A stretch of 64,000 nucleotides of DNA from a virus (Duplodnaviria; Caudoviricetes). Made by a program: the position numbers and the translations under genes. The stretch is taken from the IMG/VR virus record IMGVR_UViG_3300001580_000017, positions 11,066-75,065 of that record. The stretch is one strand, 5' to 3'. Below, in pieces: positions 10,966 through 60,726 of the stretch; positions within the stretch are counted from its first letter, which is position 1, and every line of letters starts with the position of its first letter. The notes below the pieces were generated by a model that worked only from the letters and a program-made list of their open reading frames with translations, was not told where the DNA came from and ran no database searches.

Positions 10966-11246
10966 TTCAAGTACCTTATTATTTCAGTTATTTTCTTATC
11001 AATGTTTTCAAATTTATCTGTATAAAACATTTTTTCTTCGTTCTCATTCAACACATGGAAATAGTATCTCATATCTCTTGATTCTTGATAAAATTCTATA
11101 TAGGTGTTTTCATTCAACATACACAATGTTTCGCTATCCTTGTGTGTTACAATAAATCCCTGTTCTTCAAATATATCCTGAATTTCGAGAATTTTATCTT
11201 TATTCATTATGTAACATTCCATGTATAGTTCCGTGAGATTATCCAA
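10962..11246 (-). CDS. Hypothetical protein
   Basis: ORF overlapping both neighbours, 94 aa. Confidence 0.6.
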   Translation of the reverse strand: MDNLTELYMECYIMNKDKILEIQDIFEEQGFIVTHKDSETLCMLNENTYIEFYQESRDMRYYFHVLNENEEKMFYTDKFENIDKKITEIIRYLK

Positions 11247-46908: not shown

Positions 46909-47526
46909 TTAATTTAAATTCAACATTTTTAACATAACTTTGTGCAATTTTATAGTCATCTGCACATCACACAAAGCATTATGAGCTTGCAAAGAATTAT
47001 CATCAGGGAAGAAACATTTATACATATCTTCCAATTTATGACTTTTATAAACATTTTTGATTTTTCTTTCAATCAAAGGAACAAGTTGCATCACATCAAT
47101 ATTCCTATTCTGAAAATGTTTATAGTATTCTTTATAATATACGGTGTAGTCCCCCGTCAACGAATGATCAGGATTATAAACTCTTGCAAAAAAATTTAAT
47201 AGTTTGTGAACATCGAAATTCACATTGTATCCAGCCACACACAAACGATTAAAATATCCATTATTACTGAATGGAGAAATAATTTGTAAAAATTCTTTCA
47301 TAACTTTTTCACCATCATCATAAGTTGAAATTTCTTCCAAAGTACAACCATTCACTTTCAATGCTTCGTCCTTTATAACAGAAAAATCATAAGGTTTGAT
47401 TTTGAATTGAAACCAATAATCAAATTTATCGGGTTCATATTCAATGCAACCAGCCATTTGTATAATTTCTCCTTCGTGCCAGACGGAAGTAGTTTCTGTG
47501 TCTAAGTACATAACAGGGATATGCAT
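46909..47526 (-). CDS. DEDDh 3'-5' exonuclease
   Basis: LDTETT, AGYNVNFD, AHNALCDV. Confidence 0.88.
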   Translation of the reverse strand: MHIPVMYLDTETTSVWHEGEIIQMAGCIEYEPDKFDYWFQFKIKPYDFSVIKDEALKVNGCTLEEISTYDDGEKVMKEFLQIISPFSNNGYFNRLCVAGYNVNFDVHKLLNFFARVYNPDHSLTGDYTVYYKEYYKHFQNRNIDVMQLVPLIERKIKNVYKSHKLEDMYKCFFPDDNSLQAHNALCDVQMTIKLHKVMLKMLNLN

Positions 47527-49017
47527 TTAATTCATTCCTTTTAGTAATTTATCTATTTCGTGTATAACCAATTCCAGTTCATTTGCTTTCTTTTTTGCAT
47601 CTTTTCTGATATTGAACATGTCCTTTACTCTTTTCGGTAAGATTCCTTTCTTATCTTGCTTATAAAATTCTCCGTTGGGTGTCATCGTGAGATTATGAGA
47701 TTTTAATACACCACTGAAATTTGTTCTAAAACTTTCATCATTTGCGAATTTATCCAAAAGAATAGTGAGCATATCCAAAGTGTTTTGTTTTCCTCCACCA
47801 GCATAGTTTATAGCTTTTCTTATTTCCCATAGATCAGGTGTAAGTTCGTTATCTTTTACTATAGTTTCCGGAGAAATATTTGACTGCATAATTTGATGGG
47901 GATGAGCAGAGATTATATCTGGGATGATAACATTAAAATATCTTCCTCTAACAAATCTTCCAACATGACCACCAGCAATTCCAACACGAGGATATTTTTC
48001 TTGTGGGATCATTTCGCCATTGTTTAAACAGTAGTTGTATAAATCGCCACTCCAAAGTTTTATGGCACTCGTGCAATCAGAGGGAAGAACCATCATACTA
48101 TTAGACAGAAGCATAACCATATCGAGAATGTGTCGTTTCTTTTCTATGTTGACCATTAAACGAACATCGTGAATATTATAATCAATGAAATGTTCAAAAT
48201 CATTTTCATATAGATCATGTAATGTTCCGTCATATTCAATTTTTTTCTCTCCAAGCTCCGCACTTGCTGCGTCATTTAAAGAATAAAATACTGTATTATT
48301 TATTCCTGAAAAATGCATATACAGTTTCATGTAATCAAGAATTTGAATCGTATAAATTTTCTTCGTGTATTGATTTATGTTCCCGTCACACCAATTTCTT
48401 ATTATAGGAGAAATGTTATAGTATTTATTCAACATTCTTGTGGTCAAATAGGTAATATCAAAATCATCACTGTTCCAACCAATCAACATCTGAATTTGTT
48501 TTTGTTCTAAAAGTTTACACATCAGTTCCAAAAGATGTTGTTCATCTACCGCTTCTCTGTAAACTGATTTATTGTTTTTCGGTTTATAATCTTTTAGAGA
48601 AAAAGTGATATAAACATCTTTATCGAATGTGTAGAATGTTATAGCATTTACGGGGTATAAAGCATCTTTCGGTTTGGGAAATTTATCAGGTGTGTCAACC
48701 TCAATATCAAAAAACCAAGCATCTGGTGTTGATACAATTTGTTCGTTTTTTCCAAATTTGTGACTAATGAATTGATATTTTGGGGCTATAACTCCGCTCA
48801 AATTAGAATGTTCTTTGATGTACTTATTGTATTCATAAGAATTATTAAATTCTAATTTATCTACGGCTTTACCATAAATATCTTTTAACTGACCGATTGG
48901 TGAATGTTCTCCAACTATGGGTTTAAATCTTTCGCTTGAGAGTATAGTTTTGTTTAAGTTTTCATCCTTATAACTATACCACATTCTACCATTTTTTTCA
49001 TATACATTTAAATAAAT
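47527..49017 (-). CDS. gp43: Family B DNA polymerase, N-terminal half (gp43A-like); probable AUU start at 49017 (first ATG 48984)
   Basis: ExoI FFDIEVD, ExoII GWNSDDFD, ExoIII YNIHDV, motif A DIISAHP...NISPET, KGILP...RK; stops in the fingers, no KxxxNSxYG or YGDTDS. Confidence 0.88.
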   Translation of the reverse strand: MYLNVYEKNGRMWYSYKDENLNKTILSSERFKPIVGEHSPIGQLKDIYGKAVDKLEFNNSYEYNKYIKEHSNLSGVIAPKYQFISHKFGKNEQIVSTPDAWFFDIEVDTPDKFPKPKDALYPVNAITFYTFDKDVYITFSLKDYKPKNNKSVYREAVDEQHLLELMCKLLEQKQIQMLIGWNSDDFDITYLTTRMLNKYYNISPIIRNWCDGNINQYTKKIYTIQILDYMKLYMHFSGINNTVFYSLNDAASAELGEKKIEYDGTLHDLYENDFEHFIDYNIHDVRLMVNIEKKRHILDMVMLLSNSMMVLPSDCTSAIKLWSGDLYNYCLNNGEMIPQEKYPRVGIAGGHVGRFVRGRYFNVIIPDIISAHPHQIMQSNISPETIVKDNELTPDLWEIRKAINYAGGGKQNTLDMLTILLDKFANDESFRTNFSGVLKSHNLTMTPNGEFYKQDKKGILPKRVKDMFNIRKDAKKKANELELVIHEIDKLLKGMN

Positions 49018-49081: not shown

Positions 49082-50647
49082 TTACAATAAATCCAAAAAA
49101 GTTGGTTTGGCTACCGAATCAATGAAAGATAAAATATGAGAAATAACTTTTATAGTCCATCCGTTTCCCATCAATTTGTATCTGTTAGTTTCTGCCACAT
49201 TAGCTATAACATAATCAGTAAAATACATATCATAGAAACCATATAGAGCTTCATTATCTTCTCTTGGTATGATAAACTTCTTTGATGGTTTTTTATCAGT
49301 ATAAACACCATATAAAGTATAATTATCAGGAACAGTTTGCAATCTTTCACATTCAAGGGGTGTTAATCTTCTAACTGATTTATTTTGAATAACAGATTGA
49401 CCCGCTATAGATGTACGACAATGAGGAGTAGTTCCCAAAGTTTTTGCTTTCTCATCATCTTTTATTGTGTTATTATAATGATCAATTACATTTGCTTTGT
49501 TGTCATCATCTAATATTAAATGATTACATCTTGGTGACATAGCATGAAGTGTAGGATATTTATCTTCTTCTGTTATTTTTTCTTCTTTGTATCCATGAGG
49601 AATATGATATAAACCGGTCTTAGCACCCATTCCACCAGCAGTTCCAATTAAAGTAACACTTTTTTCTTCTATATCATAAACACGACACCCCTGACTGTTT
49701 TTATGTGTCATTATCAGATTGTCTTTTGTTATCGTTGTCAAAGCATTTGTTTTTTCATCAAAGCGAGGTTCAAGCTGTTGTATATTTTTTCTTTGTTCTT
49801 GAATTTCTCCACTTTCATGGGCTTTTCTTATTTCTTTTCCATATAATGTTCTTTTCGGAGATAGACAAGCTTGTTCTCTTCCTCTGCTTGCTACACAGAT
49901 GGCATCTTCTTCTCTATTGGTACAAATCAAATCAGCCGTTCCTCCACCACCAATTTTTAAGGTATCCATTTTATCAGTGTTATCAACATCTCGGAATTTT
50001 GCAGAAAATCCCCTGCTGTTTTCAACTTGTCTTTCGTTGTATTTGAATAATGCATTTAAAGTTTTATCACTCAAATAATATCTATCATCAGCATTCTGTT
50101 CAAGTATATCTTTTAATTTTATTCCCTGATCTTCCGGTTGCTGAATATTTGGGATATTTGTCCAGTAGAGTCGCTGCCTATTTTGTGCGCTTAAATTTGA
50201 ACTGTTTATCAAAATGGGTTCTACTCCCATATAATCGGTTATTTGCTGTTCCCATTCCTTTTTCATTTTGACATTTTCTAATAAAAAATATTTGGGTTTT
50301 AATTCTTTTAATAATCGGAGATATTCAAAGAATAAACTACTATCTTTTCCTTCTAATCCTCCACCAAGAGAATTGGCATTTGAAAGCTGCGTGCAAGGCG
50401 ATCCCCCCATCAGCAGGTCAATTACAGGAAGATTTTCAGCATTTAATTTTGTAACATCACCAAGTTGAACAGTTTCGGGAAAATTAAAATTTGTTACCGC
50501 TATTGCATGGGTATCAATTTCCGAAGCATAGTATTTACAATATTTTATTCCAAGATCATTTAGTGCAAGTTGACCCCCGGAACAACCATCAAATAAACTC
50601 AGAACATTTCTTACATAAATTTTATCAATTTTTTCTACTTCAATCAT
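49082..50647 (-). CDS. dcm: C5 cytosine DNA methyltransferase with an expanded variable region
   Basis: SLFDGCSGG, GGSPC, LLENV, QNRQRLYW, RRLTPLECERLQ, GNGW. Confidence 0.93.
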   Translation of the reverse strand: MIEVEKIDKIYVRNVLSLFDGCSGGQLALNDLGIKYCKYYASEIDTHAIAVTNFNFPETVQLGDVTKLNAENLPVIDLLMGGSPCTQLSNANSLGGGLEGKDSSLFFEYLRLLKELKPKYFLLENVKMKKEWEQQITDYMGVEPILINSSNLSAQNRQRLYWTNIPNIQQPEDQGIKLKDILEQNADDRYYLSDKTLNALFKYNERQVENSRGFSAKFRDVDNTDKMDTLKIGGGGTADLICTNREEDAICVASRGREQACLSPKRTLYGKEIRKAHESGEIQEQRKNIQQLEPRFDEKTNALTTITKDNLIMTHKNSQGCRVYDIEEKSVTLIGTAGGMGAKTGLYHIPHGYKEEKITEEDKYPTLHAMSPRCNHLILDDDNKANVIDHYNNTIKDDEKAKTLGTTPHCRTSIAGQSVIQNKSVRRLTPLECERLQTVPDNYTLYGVYTDKKPSKKFIIPREDNEALYGFYDMYFTDYVIANVAETNRYKLMGNGWTIKVISHILSFIDSVAKPTFLDLL

Positions 50648-50943
50648 TTATCTGTGCTCCCAATTCCACCGGTTCTTTCTTCTACTGTTTCGTCACCATC
50701 AGCCACTAAATACTTCTCAAAAACTCCTTGAGCTATTTTTTCTCCTTTGGTTATTAATCTTGGACATTTACCAAAATTATGTAATGCTACGGCGATGTTC
50801 CCGTTGTTATTTTCGTTGTTATGATAATCACAATTATGCAGACATAAATTATTTCCAAAAAAATTGTGATTTTTATCAACATTAATGTGATAAATTGGTT
50901 CAGTTGTCGTTTGTTTAATTTCTTTGATTTTCACAAATTTCAT
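50644..50943 (-). CDS. dut: Split-intein C-half (37 aa) fused to dUTPase C-extein (62 aa)
   Basis: MKFVKIKEI...IYHINVDKNHNFFGNNLCLHN|CDY...GEKIAQG...RTGGIGST (dUTPase motifs III-V). Confidence 0.9.
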   Translation of the reverse strand: MKFVKIKEIKQTTTEPIYHINVDKNHNFFGNNLCLHNCDYHNNENNNGNIAVALHNFGKCPRLITKGEKIAQGVFEKYLVADGDETVEERTGGIGSTDK

Positions 50944-51967
50944 TTATTTTCTCCTTTAATTTAATTATGTATTCTTCTTTTTCTTCAAAATCATTTTCCC
51001 ATAAGACTAATACTATATATCCCATATTTTGTAAAAATAATTTTTTCTGATTATCGTATTCCCAAATATCTGATGCGGTCTTTTGTATTTTAGAATGAAA
51101 ATAACTCGCATCATATATTACCGGATTACAATGCCAATAATCACCATTACATTCAATAATAATTTTTTTATCTAACAAACAAATATCAACAAATAATTTT
51201 CGAGTTTCATTTTTAACACACATCTCTACCTCAACATTGAATCCGTGCTCTTTTAATTTATCAAATATATATTTTTGCCATTTTGATATTCTTTTTGCAC
51301 CAAATCTCTTATTGCTACACACAAGAGAACAATATGTATGATTTTCACATTTTGTAGTTGTAAATTCATTATTACATGTTGGGCAAATTTTAATCAATCT
51401 TCCGATATCGTGTTTACATTTTTTAGAACAAAAACTTACATTTTTTCTATATGGGTGAACTTCAAAAATATTTTTACACACTATACACACTTTTTTTATT
51501 AATCTCTTTTCTTGGTTTGATTGAAATTTTAAATCCTTGTGTTTTTGCCTGTATGCTGACCAACAAGCAATTGAGCAACATCTTTGATTTGCATTTTGTG
51601 AATATACAGTAAATAGATTACCGCAGTTAATACAATTTCTTTTAACTGGAGGAACACGGTTGTTTTTGCCACTACAGATTTTGCTACAAAATTTTTTATT
51701 TTTAGTTTCTTTGCCACATTTATAACAGAATCGTGTTTTGCTGCGGTTATAACACGAGACGGAACAATATTTTTTAGATTTATCCCATTCTGTAACTTTG
51801 AACATGGTATCACAAAATAAACATTTTTTAATTTCATTGTGTGGAGATTTGTGTTCCCAATAACACGCGGTTGAACAATAATTTGCTGTGTTTTTTCTGT
51901 ATAACGGCACATAAAATTCATTTCCACATCCAATACAAGATTTTGTTACTCCATTTTTCGCACTCAT
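50915..51967 (-). CDS. Free-standing homing endonuclease: six CxxC...(Y/F)CSxxC zinc repeats + Vsr-like (EDxHD/DUF559) domain
   Basis: FVDI...IIIECNGDYWH...EYD...GYIVLVLWE; own late promoter at 52001-52008. Confidence 0.85.
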   Translation of the reverse strand: MSAKNGVTKSCIGCGNEFYVPLYRKNTANYCSTACYWEHKSPHNEIKKCLFCDTMFKVTEWDKSKKYCSVSCYNRSKTRFCYKCGKETKNKKFCSKICSGKNNRVPPVKRNCINCGNLFTVYSQNANQRCCSIACWSAYRQKHKDLKFQSNQEKRLIKKVCIVCKNIFEVHPYRKNVSFCSKKCKHDIGRLIKICPTCNNEFTTTKCENHTYCSLVCSNKRFGAKRISKWQKYIFDKLKEHGFNVEVEMCVKNETRKLFVDICLLDKKIIIECNGDYWHCNPVIYDASYFHSKIQKTASDIWEYDNQKKLFLQNMGYIVLVLWENDFEEKEEYIIKLKEKINEICENQRN

Positions 51968-52000
51968 ATATTTCCTTTATTTTTAATATTATAACAATAT

Positions 52001-52008
52001 TATTTATA
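52001..52008 (-). promoter_or_regulatory. Late promoter for the endonuclease / intein-C transcript
   Basis: Exact TATAAATA in the 60-bp gap. Confidence 0.7.
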
Positions 52009-52027
52009 AAAGAAATATAGCGGTAAA

Positions 52028-52618
52028 CTAAAATTTTAAAACTTTATCGCAAATTGTCAAATTTTTAATTTTTATCCATCCTCGTTCTGTATATATTTCT
52101 TTGTTCTCTGGTAATTTTATTTTGTCACCTTCTTCTGTTTCTATTTCTATTAGCGGCAAATCATTAACTATCCATATATCAGTTATCATATCTTCTTCTA
52201 CTTCTTTTTCCTCCTCATTAAAAGAAAAAATTATCTCAGGGACATTACTATCAAAAATATCTTCTATTTTTTTATTTCCGTTGGGTGTGGTTATATTTGT
52301 TCCTTTCGGTACACAATCCACTATACCAGTGCCATTGGCAAGTCTCAATTGTCTCTTGATTCCCAAAGAACTTCTCGAATAAATTTTAAGAACTTCATCA
52401 TCTTGCATTTTACAACAAACATCTGTCCAAGTTATAACTGTTTCACCCGGAGGAATTTCAATATCTTCCACAAGGAAAAAATCATATCCAGCGGAATTTT
52501 TACTTCCTCTTTTCGGTAGAATTATTTCCGCATTTGGAAATTTTCTAAATTTATCCGAAACCACATAAAATTTTCTATTAATTTGTTTGTATATTTCTTT
52601 TTCGCTCATATACGCCAT
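52028..52618 (-). CDS. dut: dUTPase N-extein (101 aa) fused to split-intein N-half (95 aa, Cys1 codon at 52315)
   Basis: PKRGSKNSAGYDF, RSSLG, LANGTGIVD|CVPKGTNITTPNG..KIEDI...IETEEGDKIKL...TERGWIKIKNL...DKV. Confidence 0.9.
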   Translation of the reverse strand: MAYMSEKEIYKQINRKFYVVSDKFRKFPNAEIILPKRGSKNSAGYDFFLVEDIEIPPGETVITWTDVCCKMQDDEVLKIYSRSSLGIKRQLRLANGTGIVDCVPKGTNITTPNGNKKIEDIFDSNVPEIIFSFNEEEKEVEEDMITDIWIVNDLPLIEIETEEGDKIKLPENKEIYTERGWIKIKNLTICDKVLKF

Positions 52619-57204: not shown

Positions 57205-58905
57205 ATGACAACACAATATGAAAGAAAGAAAGTAGAACTGATATGTAAGTATTGCAATGAAATATTCTATCACGAAAATCACTTTAAAATGAGTTGCGGA
57301 AAACCTGAATGTGAAGAAGCTAAAAGAAGATTAAAAGGGCAGAAGATAGCAAATTCCGCTTCCAAAGTTTCAAAAGAGGATAAACATAAACGAATTGAAA
57401 AAAGAAATAAAACCATGATAAACAAATATGGAGTATATAATTTAATGAAAACCCCCGAAGGCAAACAGCGTTATTCTGATCTATGGAAAAATAAAACCAA
57501 AGAGGAAATTGATACAATTCAAGAGAAAATTAGAAACACTTGTCAGGAAAAATTTGGAGTAGATAATTACGCGAAAACGGATGAACATAAACTTAGGCAA
57601 AAAGAAATATGGGAAAATAAACCACAAGAAGAAAAAGATGAGATAAACAATAAAAAAATTCAAACAAGCATTGAATTATATGGAGTGGAACATCCCATGA
57701 AATCGCCAGCGGTGTTGGAGAAACGAGTTCAAACTAATCTTGAAAAATATGGCGAGATTCATCCACTTAAAACTCCAGAAGTGAAACAACATTTACGGGA
57801 TTCATATAAAGAGAAATATGGCGTGGATCACCCTATGAAAGATAAAGAAATTTGCGATAAATGCCACGAAAAAGTTAAAGAATTTTATGATAATAAAATA
57901 TACACCAAAGTTTGCCCGGTATGTAATTTGGAATTTACCACAACTTTTGATAAACACAAAAAACAAAAGTATTGTTCTGATATATGTAAGAAAGAATCCG
58001 AAAAAATCAGACTAAGAAAAATAAAAGAAACAAAGAAAGAAATATACGGTGATGAAAATTATACCAACATAGATAAAATGAAAATTTCTTGGAATAATAA
58101 AACACCCGAAGAATTAGAAGAAATAAAACAAAAACATGTAAAGTATTATATGGATAAATATGGTGTGAGTTGTTTCTCTAAAACTGAGGAATTTAAAGAA
58201 AAATTTAAACAAATATGTTTAGATTTATATGGTGTAGAAAATGTATTTCAAAATGAAGAAATAAAACAAAAAATAAGAGAAGCCAATATAGAAAAATATG
58301 GTGTTGATCATTTTATGAAAACGGATGAAGGAAAAAATGTTATTTCGGAAATATATAATAGTAAATCACAAGAAGAAAAAGATGCTATAACAGAAAAAGT
58401 TAAAGAAACCAATTTGGAAAAATACGGAACAGTTGCTCCTTTGCAAAATGAAGAGATAAAAAGCAAAGTTAAAAAAACTTGTATGAATAGATACGGAGTA
58501 AATAATCCTATGCAGTGTGAAGAAATATTCAATAAATCAATTCATAACAGCAAACAATGGAAAAACTATATTCTTCCATCGGGCAAAGAAATAAAAATTC
58601 AAGGATATGAATGGATATATCTGGATGAATATTTTAACGAAGGTAAATTAGAGGAAAATATAATAATTCATCCAACTCAAGATATTATAGGCAAAATATG
58701 GTATTATACTGCGGATGGTAAGAAACACAAATATTATCCCGATTTTTATATTCCAACAGAAAATAAAATAGTAGAAGTTAAATCTACATGGACTATGAAA
58801 CGAGATTTAGAAATAAATTCACTCAAACAAAAAGCCTGTATAGAAGCTGGCTATAATTTTGATTTGTATGTGTATGATAATCGCAAGAATAGAATATTAT
58901 GTTAA
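57205..58905 (+). CDS. Putative homing endonuclease: about 10 (K/L)YGV helical repeats, zinc ribbons, C-terminal PD-(D/E)XK domain
   Basis: Repeats of T.LEKYGV.HP; YYPDFYIP...IVEVKS. Confidence 0.8.
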   Translation: MTTQYERKKVELICKYCNEIFYHENHFKMSCGKPECEEAKRRLKGQKIANSASKVSKEDKHKRIEKRNKTMINKYGVYNLMKTPEGKQRYSDLWKNKTKEEIDTIQEKIRNTCQEKFGVDNYAKTDEHKLRQKEIWENKPQEEKDEINNKKIQTSIELYGVEHPMKSPAVLEKRVQTNLEKYGEIHPLKTPEVKQHLRDSYKEKYGVDHPMKDKEICDKCHEKVKEFYDNKIYTKVCPVCNLEFTTTFDKHKKQKYCSDICKKESEKIRLRKIKETKKEIYGDENYTNIDKMKISWNNKTPEELEEIKQKHVKYYMDKYGVSCFSKTEEFKEKFKQICLDLYGVENVFQNEEIKQKIREANIEKYGVDHFMKTDEGKNVISEIYNSKSQEEKDAITEKVKETNLEKYGTVAPLQNEEIKSKVKKTCMNRYGVNNPMQCEEIFNKSIHNSKQWKNYILPSGKEIKIQGYEWIYLDEYFNEGKLEENIIIHPTQDIIGKIWYYTADGKKHKYYPDFYIPTENKIVEVKSTWTMKRDLEINSLKQKACIEAGYNFDLYVYDNRKNRILC

Positions 58906-58965: not shown

Positions 58966-60726
58966 CTAATATTCGCTTCCAGCACCAGCCAAACCCGAAA
59001 TTGAGCTGCCCGATAAATCGCAAGTAAATGTGCGGAAAAAAAAGCGGCCGCCGAAAATGTTATCTACCAGAGCATACCTCGTAAGGAATCCATAGCAGTC
59101 ATTGAAGTTAGCAGGATCAACTGCTTTTTTAACCATCAGAGCAATATAAGGACAGTAGATTATACCAGCATCAAAGTTGTTATTTCCTTTATATCCTACA
59201 AGGCAATAATCTTGACCGAATATGTTATAAGTATCACAGTAAACTTTGATAGTTCCGAGCATACCGCTGTAAGACAGACCAGAAACGAGGTTATCACCAG
59301 TTGTAGCTGCTGCTGGAATAAGATCAACATCCTGTAAAGCTGTCAGAACATTCGGTGTACAGATAGCAAAGTTACCAGCACCTTTTCTTGTGAACAGACC
59401 AATTCTATTAGCTTCGTTTCTCAGCTTAGTAGAAAGTGTCTGGAATTTTTCTTTCTGATTCAGTCCATCAGCATAAGCAGTTACTAAGTTACCAGAACCA
59501 CCGGTAGCAGGATTAGTCTGAGATACACCAACATAAGCACCATAAGCCCAAGAACCAGCATCAGTAGAAAGACTGATCATCCTGTCAAGAATCTCTGCGT
59601 TAATTTCGTTTGCGATTTCAAGTTCAGCCATTTTCATTAACTCTTCGTTAACAAGCATACCAAACTGAGCTTTTAAATCCTGATACATCTCATCAGTATA
59701 TTGGATTCTTAGCTTTCTTTCTTTCGTGATCACGGATATTCTTTCAAGTGTCATCTGCATTGTTTTATACTCAGGAGTTCCAGCAGGAGCACCATAAACA
59801 CCCATTAACTCACCAGTAGAAGTCGTATAAGTTCCTGTAAATCCTTTAAGAATAAACCTATAACCAATCTCGTTCCAGAAATACTGATAAACTTTAGCTT
59901 TGTCAGCTTCAACTGCACCACCAGTAATCGGATGTATTTCTTCACCAGCTTCACCAAGAAGTAGATAAGTTGCGCCAGTGAAATAAACACTATCAGCTAC
60001 AGCAGGAAGATCAGTTGGAGTTGTACCATTGAGGTATCTGTTAATCATGACTTTAATGAAATCAGCATTTTCTTCTTTATAAACGATTTCACCATAAATT
60101 TTTGTTGGCTGTGTCGAAAGTGCTGCATCTGCTGTATCGGATTTGACCATTAAACATCCAATGGTAACATTCGCGTAAACAGCATCAACATCAGCATTAC
60201 CAACATTTTTAGGAACAACTACTACATAGGACATGTGTGTTACATCAGCGGAAGTAGAAGTGTCCTGATCATAAGCCCTGTCAAGTCCAGACGGTTGTAA
60301 CCATGTTTTTTCCTTGTCACCGGCATATCTGTACCTTACAGCATAGATATATCCGTTAGGTGTATTCATTGCCTGTGTACCAACCAAGTCAAGAATACTC
60401 ATTGCTTTGTACAGCCTTCTCGTTGTCGGAACTAATATTTTCAGGAACGGCTCAACTCCACCAGTAGTCTGAACATAAGATTCTTTCAGGGATTTACCCA
60501 TTTTCTCATATTCGCCCTTTACCCAGTTGTGAGCATTTTCGATCAGAGTCGCCATGTTCGGCAAATCTTCTCTTTTCAATTTTGGAGCATTTTCAGCCAA
60601 AAGCATTTTTTCCCATTTTTTAATCAGGGTTGCTGACTGCTGAACTTTGTTTTCGTAATCCGCTTCTACCAGTCTTGTAGGTTTCTGGGTCGCTGAAGGT
60701 TTTACGGTTCTTGGTGTCATTTTCAT
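58966..60726 (-). CDS. gp23: Major capsid protein gp23
   Basis: LVGTQAMNTPNGYIYAVRYRY, TKERKL, DLKAQFG, EIANEINAEI, RKGAGNF, YKG...DAGIIYCPY, TRYAL. Confidence 0.97.
   Translation of the reverse strand: MKMTPRTVKPSATQKPTRLVEADYENKVQQSATLIKKWEKMLLAENAPKLKREDLPNMATLIENAHNWVKGEYEKMGKSLKESYVQTTGGVEPFLKILVPTTRRLYKAMSILDLVGTQAMNTPNGYIYAVRYRYAGDKEKTWLQPSGLDRAYDQDTSTSADVTHMSYVVVVPKNVGNADVDAVYANVTIGCLMVKSDTADAALSTQPTKIYGEIVYKEENADFIKVMINRYLNGTTPTDLPAVADSVYFTGATYLLLGEAGEEIHPITGGAVEADKAKVYQYFWNEIGYRFILKGFTGTYTTSTGELMGVYGAPAGTPEYKTMQMTLERISVITKERKLRIQYTDEMYQDLKAQFGMLVNEELMKMAELEIANEINAEILDRMISLSTDAGSWAYGAYVGVSQTNPATGGSGNLVTAYADGLNQKEKFQTLSTKLRNEANRIGLFTRKGAGNFAICTPNVLTALQDVDLIPAAATTGDNLVSGLSYSGMLGTIKVYCDTYNIFGQDYCLVGYKGNNNFDAGIIYCPYIALMVKKAVDPANFNDCYGFLTRYALVDNIFGGRFFFRTFTCDLSGSSISGLAGAGSEY

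Follow-up and report, generated by a model that had tools for sequence, protein, structure and literature searches.

A phage dUTPase gene divided into two half-genes with intein halves and a free-standing Vsr-like endonuclease gene between them

Introduction

How could a phage make an intact dUTPase from a gene that has been cut in two inside an active-site motif? This question is raised by a stretch of 64,000 nucleotides (nt) of DNA from a large uncultured phage, positions 11,066 to 75,065 of the IMG/VR virus record IMGVR_UViG_3300001580_000017, which we call the window and to which all coordinates refer. On its minus strand the dUTPase gene, dut, is present as two half-genes, each fused to one half of an intein, and the gene of a Vsr-like endonuclease lies between them. 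We propose that dut is here a 'fractured gene', cut by an element composed of a mini-intein and a free-standing homing endonuclease gene, and that it most likely depends on protein trans-splicing; judging from sequences and structure models, we would give this reading a probability of roughly 0.8. Much of it had been suggested by an earlier, sequence-only reading of the window.

Results

Division of dut within motif III

The locus consists of three co-oriented open reading frames (ORFs), found exactly where the sequence-only reading had placed them. Their parts are as follows (lengths in amino acids, aa).

52618-52028, minus strand: N gene, 196 aa; dUTPase motifs I-III (101 aa) followed by a 95-aa N-intein
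52316-52618, minus strand: dUTPase N-extein, 101 aa; motif I (AGYDF), motif II (SRSSLG) and the first half of motif III (GTGIVD)
52031-52315, minus strand: N-intein (IntN), 95 aa from Cys1 (CVPKGT; Cys102 of the N gene); stop codon 52030-52028
50915-51967, minus strand: free-standing homing-type endonuclease gene, 350 aa
50943-50644, minus strand: C gene, 99 aa; opens with a C-intein (37 aa), followed by Cys+1 and by dUTPase motifs III-V
50833-50943, minus strand: C-intein (IntC), 37 aa, MKFVKIKEI...NNLCLHN
50647-50832, minus strand: dUTPase C-extein, 62 aa; Cys+1 codon 50832-50830; stop codon 50646-50644

The N gene matched the dUTPase family PF00692 with 35.6 bits (cut-off 22) and phrog_135 with an E-value of 2e-22, the dUTPase part covering residues ~25-101. 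Counted from the first ATG, its N-extein has 101 aa, and from the ATG at 52609 it has 98 aa; P0001, the gene call on record in the database, begins at MSEKE. The C-extein begins with CDYHNN and contains the remaining part of motif III (CDYHNNENNNGN), motif IV (GEKIAQG) and motif V (RTGGIGST), and the C gene matched NF010561, dUTP diphosphatase (E = 3e-16, positions 79-147 of 147), as well as phrog_135 (E = 2e-9). When the halves were examined separately, all five motifs of the trimeric dUTPases (PF00692) were found in order across the exteins, motif III reading GIVD/CDY (the slash marks the junction).

The exteins were aligned with 3h6x, the closest solved dUTPase. The N-extein corresponded to residues 16-86 of 3h6x, ending at Asp101, and the alignment of the C half resumed at residue 87 with its Cys38, covering residues 87-146 of 148 (E = 3.8e-11). 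Since the two alignments abut at residues 86/87, no residue is missing or duplicated. The cut therefore lies inside motif III, as had been claimed, with GIVD/CDY here standing against GVID-GDY in 3h6x. Joined, the exteins (101 + 62 aa) give a protein of 163 aa, which is the size that had been predicted for the spliced enzyme. A spacer of 60 nt separates the stop codon of the N gene from the ATG of the endonuclease, and the endonuclease ORF overlaps the C gene by 29 nt.

Sequence signatures of the intein halves

Both intein halves described in the sequence-only reading were found. The 95-aa end of the N gene, starting with CVPKGT, scored 31.7 bits with TIGR01445 (intein_Nterm; cut-off 24.5), and the C gene opens with the 37-aa segment that ends with His36-Asn37 (block G) and is followed by Cys+1. 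This segment matched PF14890 with an E-value of 3.3e-5 over profile positions 120-155 of 155. Its block F contains IYH, with His19 in place of the usual Asp, and NHNFF (His26). The start codon of the C gene and an AAGGAG Shine-Dalgarno sequence lie within the 3' end of the endonuclease ORF.

In profile comparisons with inteins of known structure, IntN matched the bacterial intein-like (BIL) domain of C. thermocellum (2lwy, E = 5.6e-6), Ssp DnaB (1mi8, 5.5e-5) and NrdJ-1 (8ubs, 1.8e-4), while IntC matched BIL2 of T. thermophila (6y75, E = 2e-7), Aes123 PolB1 (9hth), Spl DnaX (7cfv) and gp41-1 (6qaz, 0.014). IntN contains 22 Asp or Glu residues, 12 Lys or Arg residues and no histidine at all. 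It is thus acidic and IntC is slightly basic, which is the charge pattern of natural split inteins.

The Hedgehog/intein (HINT) fold was assessed on a model of a contiguous relative, P0073, and not on the window's own two chains. The exteins of P0073 modelled poorly (predicted local distance difference test, pLDDT, <50), so the intein part was used alone. It gave a HINT fold (block pLDDT 68-86; Foldseek probability 1.00) with template modelling (TM) scores of 0.74-0.84 to Ssp DnaB, Npu DnaB, gp41-1, NrdJ-1 and BIL domains; here and for the endonuclease model below, TM values are normalised to the target. We also considered a class 3 intein, and this was rejected: Cys1 is present, position F:4 holds a His instead of a Cys, and block G lacks Thr, its end being CLHN.

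The endonuclease between the halves

The sequence-only reading had described the intervening protein as a Vsr-like endonuclease with zinc repeats whose gene overlaps the IntC coding sequence by 29 bp. The overlap is present, as given above, and residues 11-222 (51937-51302) consist of six CxxC...CSxxC zinc-ribbon modules. No NUMOD domain was matched in these N-terminal 222 residues in a Pfam scan; some more distant homologues of the endonuclease do carry NUMOD3 (PF07460).

Residues 229-350 (51283-50918) form a Vsr-like domain of the EDxHD type, with D261, E272, D276, H279 and D305. By sequence the relationship is faint: Pfam gave weak matches to MTES_1575 and DUF559, TIGR00632 (vsr) gave a weak match with E = 7e-4, a phmmer search of the PDB sequences returned no match, and the endonuclease profile gave there a marginal Vsr match only (E = 1.1). 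The assignment to the Vsr-like/EDxHD homing endonucleases was made by fold comparison. The AlphaFold2 model (pLDDT 88.8) matched all three Vsr-type targets with a Foldseek probability of 1.00, namely Vsr 1cw0 (E = 3.6e-4, TM 0.59), Vsr 1vsr (E = 4.3e-3, TM 0.62) and the catalytic domain of I-Bth0305I, 3r3p_A (E = 8.0e-3, TM 0.77, root-mean-square deviation 3.3 A), and the Vsr-like character of the protein was thereby borne out.

The catalytic residues point the same way. In 32 homologues D261, E272, G275, D276, Y277, W278, H279, C280, N281 and P282 are invariant and D305 is nearly so. The spacing of D261 and H279, 18 residues, equals that of D51 and H69 in Vsr; E272 stands seven residues before the His, at the position of Vsr Phe62, and D305 corresponds to Vsr D97, so the composite EDxHD catalytic motif is present. 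A glutamate at Vsr position 62 is the marker of the homing branch (Dassa et al., PMC2677866).

Possible control of endonuclease expression

Three features were noted around the start of the endonuclease gene.

52008-52001, minus strand: TATAAATA late-promoter box, 33 nt upstream of the endonuclease ATG
51967-52019, minus strand: RNA hairpin with a 3' arm that extends over AAGGA (Shine-Dalgarno) and the first base of the endonuclease AUG
52033-52060, minus strand: sigma-70-like promoter match TTGACA-16-TAAAAT (11/12), ahead of the endonuclease gene and within the final codons of IntN

The late promoter that had been ascribed to the endonuclease was thus located, and TATAAATA is enriched in the window, with 27 copies against 13.0 +/- 3.5 in shuffled sequences. 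It sits in the 5' arm and inner stem of the hairpin, which has a minimum free energy of -18.4 kcal/mol; equally good folds were seen in 2 of 200 shuffles. Hairpins that occlude the start are also found in relatives (L007, z -5.4; L027, z -4.5, with TATAAATA in the loop; L008, z -1.9), and in relatives the endonuclease overlaps the C half by 4-20 nt. The same element was described by Dassa 2009 (PMC2677866) for 15 of 16 endonucleases of fractured genes, and in ten of these it has TATAAATA; the authors compared it with the attenuation of translation that had been demonstrated for Aeh1 mobE. In Aeh1 mobE a hairpin with a late promoter attenuates translation, as it would in the present gene. The sigma-70-like match is a lead only and was set aside as a promoter for the endonuclease, the number of such sites in the region not being above that in shuffles.

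Relatives and the homing cycle

Proteins composed of a dUTPase N-half and IntN were found at 49-58% identity in JGI, ENA and Logan assemblies. Every such contig with enough DNA had the three genes in the same order (L001, L002 and L005-L008 of the set L001-L009, and the contig of P0008). A search of 1.84 billion cluster representatives with the IntN profile gave 1,405 matches at E <= 0.001, and 54 of the 150 best were dUTPase N-halves ending with IntN at the same site. In IMG/VR there were 25 further dUTPase loci. The split layout was seen in 24 IMG/VR loci: 18 of them, a clade with His at F:4, have the same zinc-ribbon/Vsr endonuclease family, intact or decayed, and the other 6, a clade with Asp at F:4 and TxxT in block B, have similar split spacing and no match to this endonuclease family. 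It is clear that the locus is not a one-off but part of a large metagenomic family. Two or more lineages of dUTPase carry the same intein, among them the GxIDxDYY type, to which the window belongs, and the NSPGTID...YRGE type.

Several states of the element were observed. P0073, a protein of 284 aa, is a dUTPase that contains a contiguous mini-intein but no endonuclease; it has the same site, PxxK and IYH, is 43% identical to the window in the N half and 49% in the C half, and has nothing inserted where the window's intein is split. In L034, L035 and L037 the ORF of the endonuclease is broken in two, and only a 70-aa remnant of it is left in L041 and L042 (IMG/VR 3300025141), where the starts of IntN and IntC are 464 nt apart. 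L025 (protein P0009) represents an allele without the intein; its junction, GGAATAATAGAT/TCTGATTATTAT, is nearly identical, with TCT (Ser) as the +1 codon as against TGT (Cys) in L008. Intact, broken and remnant endonuclease genes, a contiguous mini-intein and an empty allele are the stages that would be expected of a homing cycle. A contiguous dUTPase intein that contains an endonuclease was not found at E <= 0.001 among the longer relatives of the N half (344-2000 aa), which is weak evidence. An alignment in which half-genes of both kinds were combined with intact dUTPases (A7) put the C halves in the wrong place, and alignment A8 was used in its stead.

In cultured phages (INPHARED), tblastn with the N half returned ordinary dUTPases only, and the intein part was never covered. 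IntN alone matched there only a terminase (33% identity) and helicases of Vibrio phages (26%). The INPHARED candidates EC151 and pEa_SNUABM_1 ('dUTPase / endonuclease', 'hypothetical x2') proved to be contiguous dUTPases with neighbouring genes.

Some variation of the layout was also noticed. In P0040, P0063, P0069, L081 and L082 the intein is inserted one residue further on, GIVDN/CYRG instead of GxxD/CxY, so in some dUTPase lineages the insertion point is not strictly fixed. A third clade of split dUTPase inteins (L089-L095, IMG/VR) has TxxT in block B, CYD in block F and a spacer of ~1.2 kb that gave no match to the zinc-ribbon/Vsr endonuclease profile; it may hold an endonuclease of a different type. 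In L001, and also in L002-L004, an extra 87-aa ORF without a family match (L001:5544-5807) is found between IntN and the endonuclease, and the spacer of the L001 lineage is 325 nt compared with ~60 nt; this ORF occurs in that lineage only.

Discussion

Proposed course of splicing and homing

We suggest the following explanation. A mobile element would have cut dut in motif III, between the invariant Asp of G-I-V-D and x-D-Y, and the endonuclease gene would occupy the canonical endonuclease-insertion site of the intein. Two products would be made, N-extein-IntN (196 aa) and IntC-C-extein (99 aa), and the acidic IntN and slightly basic IntC would associate into a HINT fold. Cys1 would form a thioester with Asp-1, which would then be attacked by Cys+1; cyclisation of Asn37 and an S-to-N shift would release the intact 163-aa dUTPase, with GIVD-C-DY as its motif III. 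Because IntN has no histidine, activation of the N-terminal junction by the usual block B histidine is not available, and it would instead proceed through Lys72 and His19 at F:4 of IntC.

On early transcripts that read through the locus, the hairpin over the ribosome-binding site would keep the endonuclease silent. Late transcripts starting at TATAAATA, within the hairpin, would allow its translation. The enzyme would then cut intein-less dut alleles of co-infecting phages and the whole cassette would spread.

Weighing of the evidence

Several observations weigh against this explanation. Two of the C-half scores fall just below their thresholds, 20.1 bits for PF00692 (cut-off 22) and 13.8 for TIGR01443, intein_Cterm (cut-off 15.6). 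Asp is an unusual flanking residue at position -1, and block B reads P69-E-N-K72 rather than TxxH, having neither Thr nor His. The hairpin of the window has a moderate z of -2.45, and none was seen in L005, which is the closest relative. In addition, the record is estimated by CheckV to be ~40% complete, which leaves room for a second, intact dut elsewhere in the genome.

The alternative that survives best is that the intein halves no longer splice and serve as a tight, non-covalent docking pair for the dUTPase fragments. There is a precedent in Aeh1 NrdA: according to PMC3045599, nrdA of this T4-like phage, like dut a gene of nucleotide metabolism, was fragmented by the free-standing endonuclease gene mobE, and its product is assembled from fragments that join non-covalently, without splicing. 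An IntN devoid of histidine, with PxxK as its block B, would also suit docking. For docking, however, neither Cys1 nor His-Asn nor Cys+1 is needed, and the dut halves, unlike those described for Aeh1, have complete splice-junction residues. Cys1 was kept in all of the 54 dUTPase-hosted N-inteins. His26, His36, Asn37 and Cys+1 were invariant in the aligned IntC sequences and were present in every dUTPase-hosted IntC from the IMG/VR loci examined, whereas position +1 of intact or intein-less relatives is Ser, Phe or Gly and never Cys. Moreover, an unspliced HINT domain of 132 aa would have to be accommodated in the middle of motif III, before the conserved Asp-Tyr, in a tightly packed trimer. 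We therefore consider docking without splicing unlikely.

Still less probable, in our opinion, is that the split dut is a dead, decaying gene disrupted by a selfish element, and that the phage uses the host dUTPase or another copy. The record is only a fragment, and dUTPase is dispensable in many phages; within the 75-kb record we found no other dUTPase and no other intein N-terminus. Against decay, both halves were open at every locus examined and all five dUTPase motifs are intact. Nonsynonymous changes (dN) were fewer than synonymous ones (dS) throughout exteins and intein halves, the synonymous sites being near saturation; the proportion of nonsynonymous differences was 0.14-0.28 for IntN and 0.07-0.25 for IntC, compared with 0.24-0.42 for the exteins. 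The arrangement has been kept in over 50 clusters (50% identity) and occurs on contigs as long as 348 kb, and decay, where it is seen, hits the endonuclease and not the dUTPase or intein parts.

That assembly or sequencing errors broke a single contiguous intein with an in-frame endonuclease by frameshifts is very improbable: nothing favours it except that the contig is metagenome-assembled, while the IntN stop, a spacer of 56-325 nt and separate starts of endonuclease and IntC recur across samples and assemblers (ENA, JGI, Logan, IMG/VR), the endonuclease start in the window has a Shine-Dalgarno sequence, and the spacer bears its own hairpin and promoter motif.

Block B without histidine and its pairing with block F

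Within the trans-splicing explanation, the absence of both Thr and His from block B is the most unusual feature of this intein. In profile alignments P69 and K72 fall on the block B Thr and His of 1mi8 (TANH), 8ubs (TPDH) and 2lwy (TFDH). The 54 dUTPase-hosted N-inteins among the 150 best matches had [P/A/S]xxK in 46 cases, TxxQ in five, and TxxE, TxxS and TxxH in one case each; among the matches listed, inteins of other hosts from the same search had xxxH in 132 cases. At F:4 the IntC of the window has the His of IYH, a position held by Asp in other inteins (for example in VYD of 9hth).

The two positions vary together. In IMG/VR loci with both halves, all 18 dUTPase loci with PxxK had His at F:4, all six dUTPase loci of the second clade, with TxxT, had Asp at F:4, and in 42 loci with other host genes TxxH was combined with Asp at F:4. 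A further dUTPase locus, L027, had TxxQ together with Asp. These counts represent few clades and not many independent events; they show linkage and not proof of compensation.

From these alignments we infer that Lys72 and His19 of IntC may jointly take over the role of the missing block B histidine. More broadly, and tentatively, the dUTPase-hosted inteins could be a widespread natural clade that activates the N-terminal junction without a block B His, with a block-B Lys and an F:4 His swapped in together and possibly tuned to the invariant Asp-1 of motif III; we hold this to be a possibility somewhat short of probable. If it is true, the clade would represent a distinct catalytic solution within class 1 inteins and could readily supply split inteins whose halves are orthogonal to those of gp41-1, NrdJ-1 and DnaE.

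We also came across a protein of 347 aa (P0120), the N-half of a host other than dUTPase, whose IntN has PxxK. Its upstream sequence, ...VLKNTRG/C, resembles hosts that we judged by eye to be of the DnaE type, and the block B without His may have moved here to another host gene.

Comparison with known systems

The sequence-only reading had recognised in the locus the architecture of known fractured genes, and the comparison upholds this. Dassa, London, Stoddard, Schueler-Furman and Pietrokovski (2009, PMC2677866) found such genes in Global Ocean Sampling (GOS) metagenomes, with gp41, IMPDH, DnaE, NrdA, NrdJ, DNA ligase and terminase as hosts. There, as here, a gene of nucleotide metabolism or replication is divided within a conserved motif of the active site, giving N-extein-IntN and IntC-C-extein. 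The free-standing gene of a Vsr-like endonuclease stands between the halves with a TATAAATA hairpin upstream and a 3' overlap with the downstream half, and the context is mainly that of phages. The present locus differs in its host, dUTPase, in the DNA-binding part with six zinc ribbons and in an intein without the Thr and His of block B. dUTPase is absent from the host list of Dassa et al. 2009 (PMC2677866), so the suggestion that it lies outside the known set holds for that list. In bioRxiv and 8.1 million PMC papers, a scope that excludes InBase, we found no paper placing an intein in dUTPase, and dUTPase is unmentioned in the main text of the Novikova survey. What is new is dUTPase as the host, an EDxHD endonuclease equipped with zinc ribbons, and the intein clade without block B histidine; the layout itself is known.

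With gp41-1, NrdJ-1 and IMPDH-1 (6qaz, 8ubs) and with Npu and Ssp DnaE the intein shares the class-1-type layout, with Cys1, a terminal His-Asn and Cys or Ser at +1, as well as the split at the endonuclease-insertion site, an IntN of ~90-100 aa and an IntC of ~35-40 aa. The P0073 model reached TM 0.82 to gp41-1 and 0.74 to NrdJ-1, but identity in the structural alignments was only ~20-22%. The profile E-values to NrdJ-1 and gp41-1 given above for IntN and IntC are likewise weak, and block B is PxxK and not TxxH or SxxH, with His and not Asp at F:4. Orthogonality to gp41-1, NrdJ-1 and DnaE, which had been suggested earlier, is a possibility.

The nearest likeness to an intein clade that is apparently maintained in nature without the block B His is the group of Tko CDC21-1. 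Its compensating residue, reported by Tori et al. 2012, is said to be a Lys outside the standard blocks. PMC6333167 describes the Tko CDC21-1 orthologues as 'a very small subset' naturally without block B His that uses a compensating residue; this residue is unimportant in His-containing inteins, and the group has a bulky Leu at -1. By analogy, the dUTPase-hosted clade would also imply a compensating residue. The Tko CDC21-1 inteins are archaeal, contiguous and endonuclease-containing, whereas here a Lys stands at the His's own position, with His at F:4 and Asp at -1.

The endonuclease resembles I-Bth0305I and the EDxHD family (PMC3239194, 3r3p) in the C-terminal Vsr-fold nuclease, the same catalytic spacing and a homing position in a phage gene. 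It differs in having six Cys4 zinc-ribbon repeats at the N-terminus, not NUMOD or helix-turn-helix elements, and its cleavage is predicted.

Protein ligation makes practical use of natural split inteins, and the fast, mutually orthogonal pairs now employed are limited in number. The locus is a member of a large and diverse split-intein family, in a new host enzyme, that we have not found described. The histidine to which reviews assign the main catalytic role at the start of splicing is missing from this family, which thus offers a natural test of alternative catalysis of that first step. For phage biology, it presents an enzyme of the nucleotide pool whose activity would depend on post-translational ligation, and a homing element caught at several stages of its life cycle.

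Genome context

The source record is an IMG/VR contig of 75 kb, and the same protein is also on record on a 128-kb contig; the G+C content of the window is 31%. The neighbourhood is a module of replication and nucleotide metabolism, with a C5 cytosine methyltransferase, a family A DNA polymerase and a separate exonuclease gene, a single-stranded DNA-binding protein (SSB), helicases, ribonucleotide reductase (RNR) and an NAD-dependent ligase.

Some of the neighbouring genes have features of their own.

49082-50647, minus strand: C5 cytosine DNA methyltransferase, 521 aa
46909-48984, minus strand: family A DNA polymerase, encoded by two genes in direct succession, one for the polymerase (485 aa) and one for an exonuclease subunit (205 aa)
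57205-58905, plus strand: ORF of 566 aa with matches to homing-endonuclease PHROGs (phrog_3339, three repeats)
58966-60726, minus strand: major head protein gene, 586 aa
42984-44183, plus strand: transposase/TnpB-like ORF, 399 aa (phrog_506)

The start of the methyltransferase gene overlaps the stop codon of the dUTPase C half (ATGA, 50644-50647). Its Pfam match extends over residues 14-447 on only 297 profile positions, which indicates a large insertion of ~130-200 aa between conserved blocks. Between the polymerase and exonuclease-subunit genes (46909-48984) there was no intein and no endonuclease. The 566-aa ORF adjoins the major head protein gene and lies on the opposite strand to it, and the TnpB-like ORF likewise lies on the strand opposite to that of its surrounding genes.

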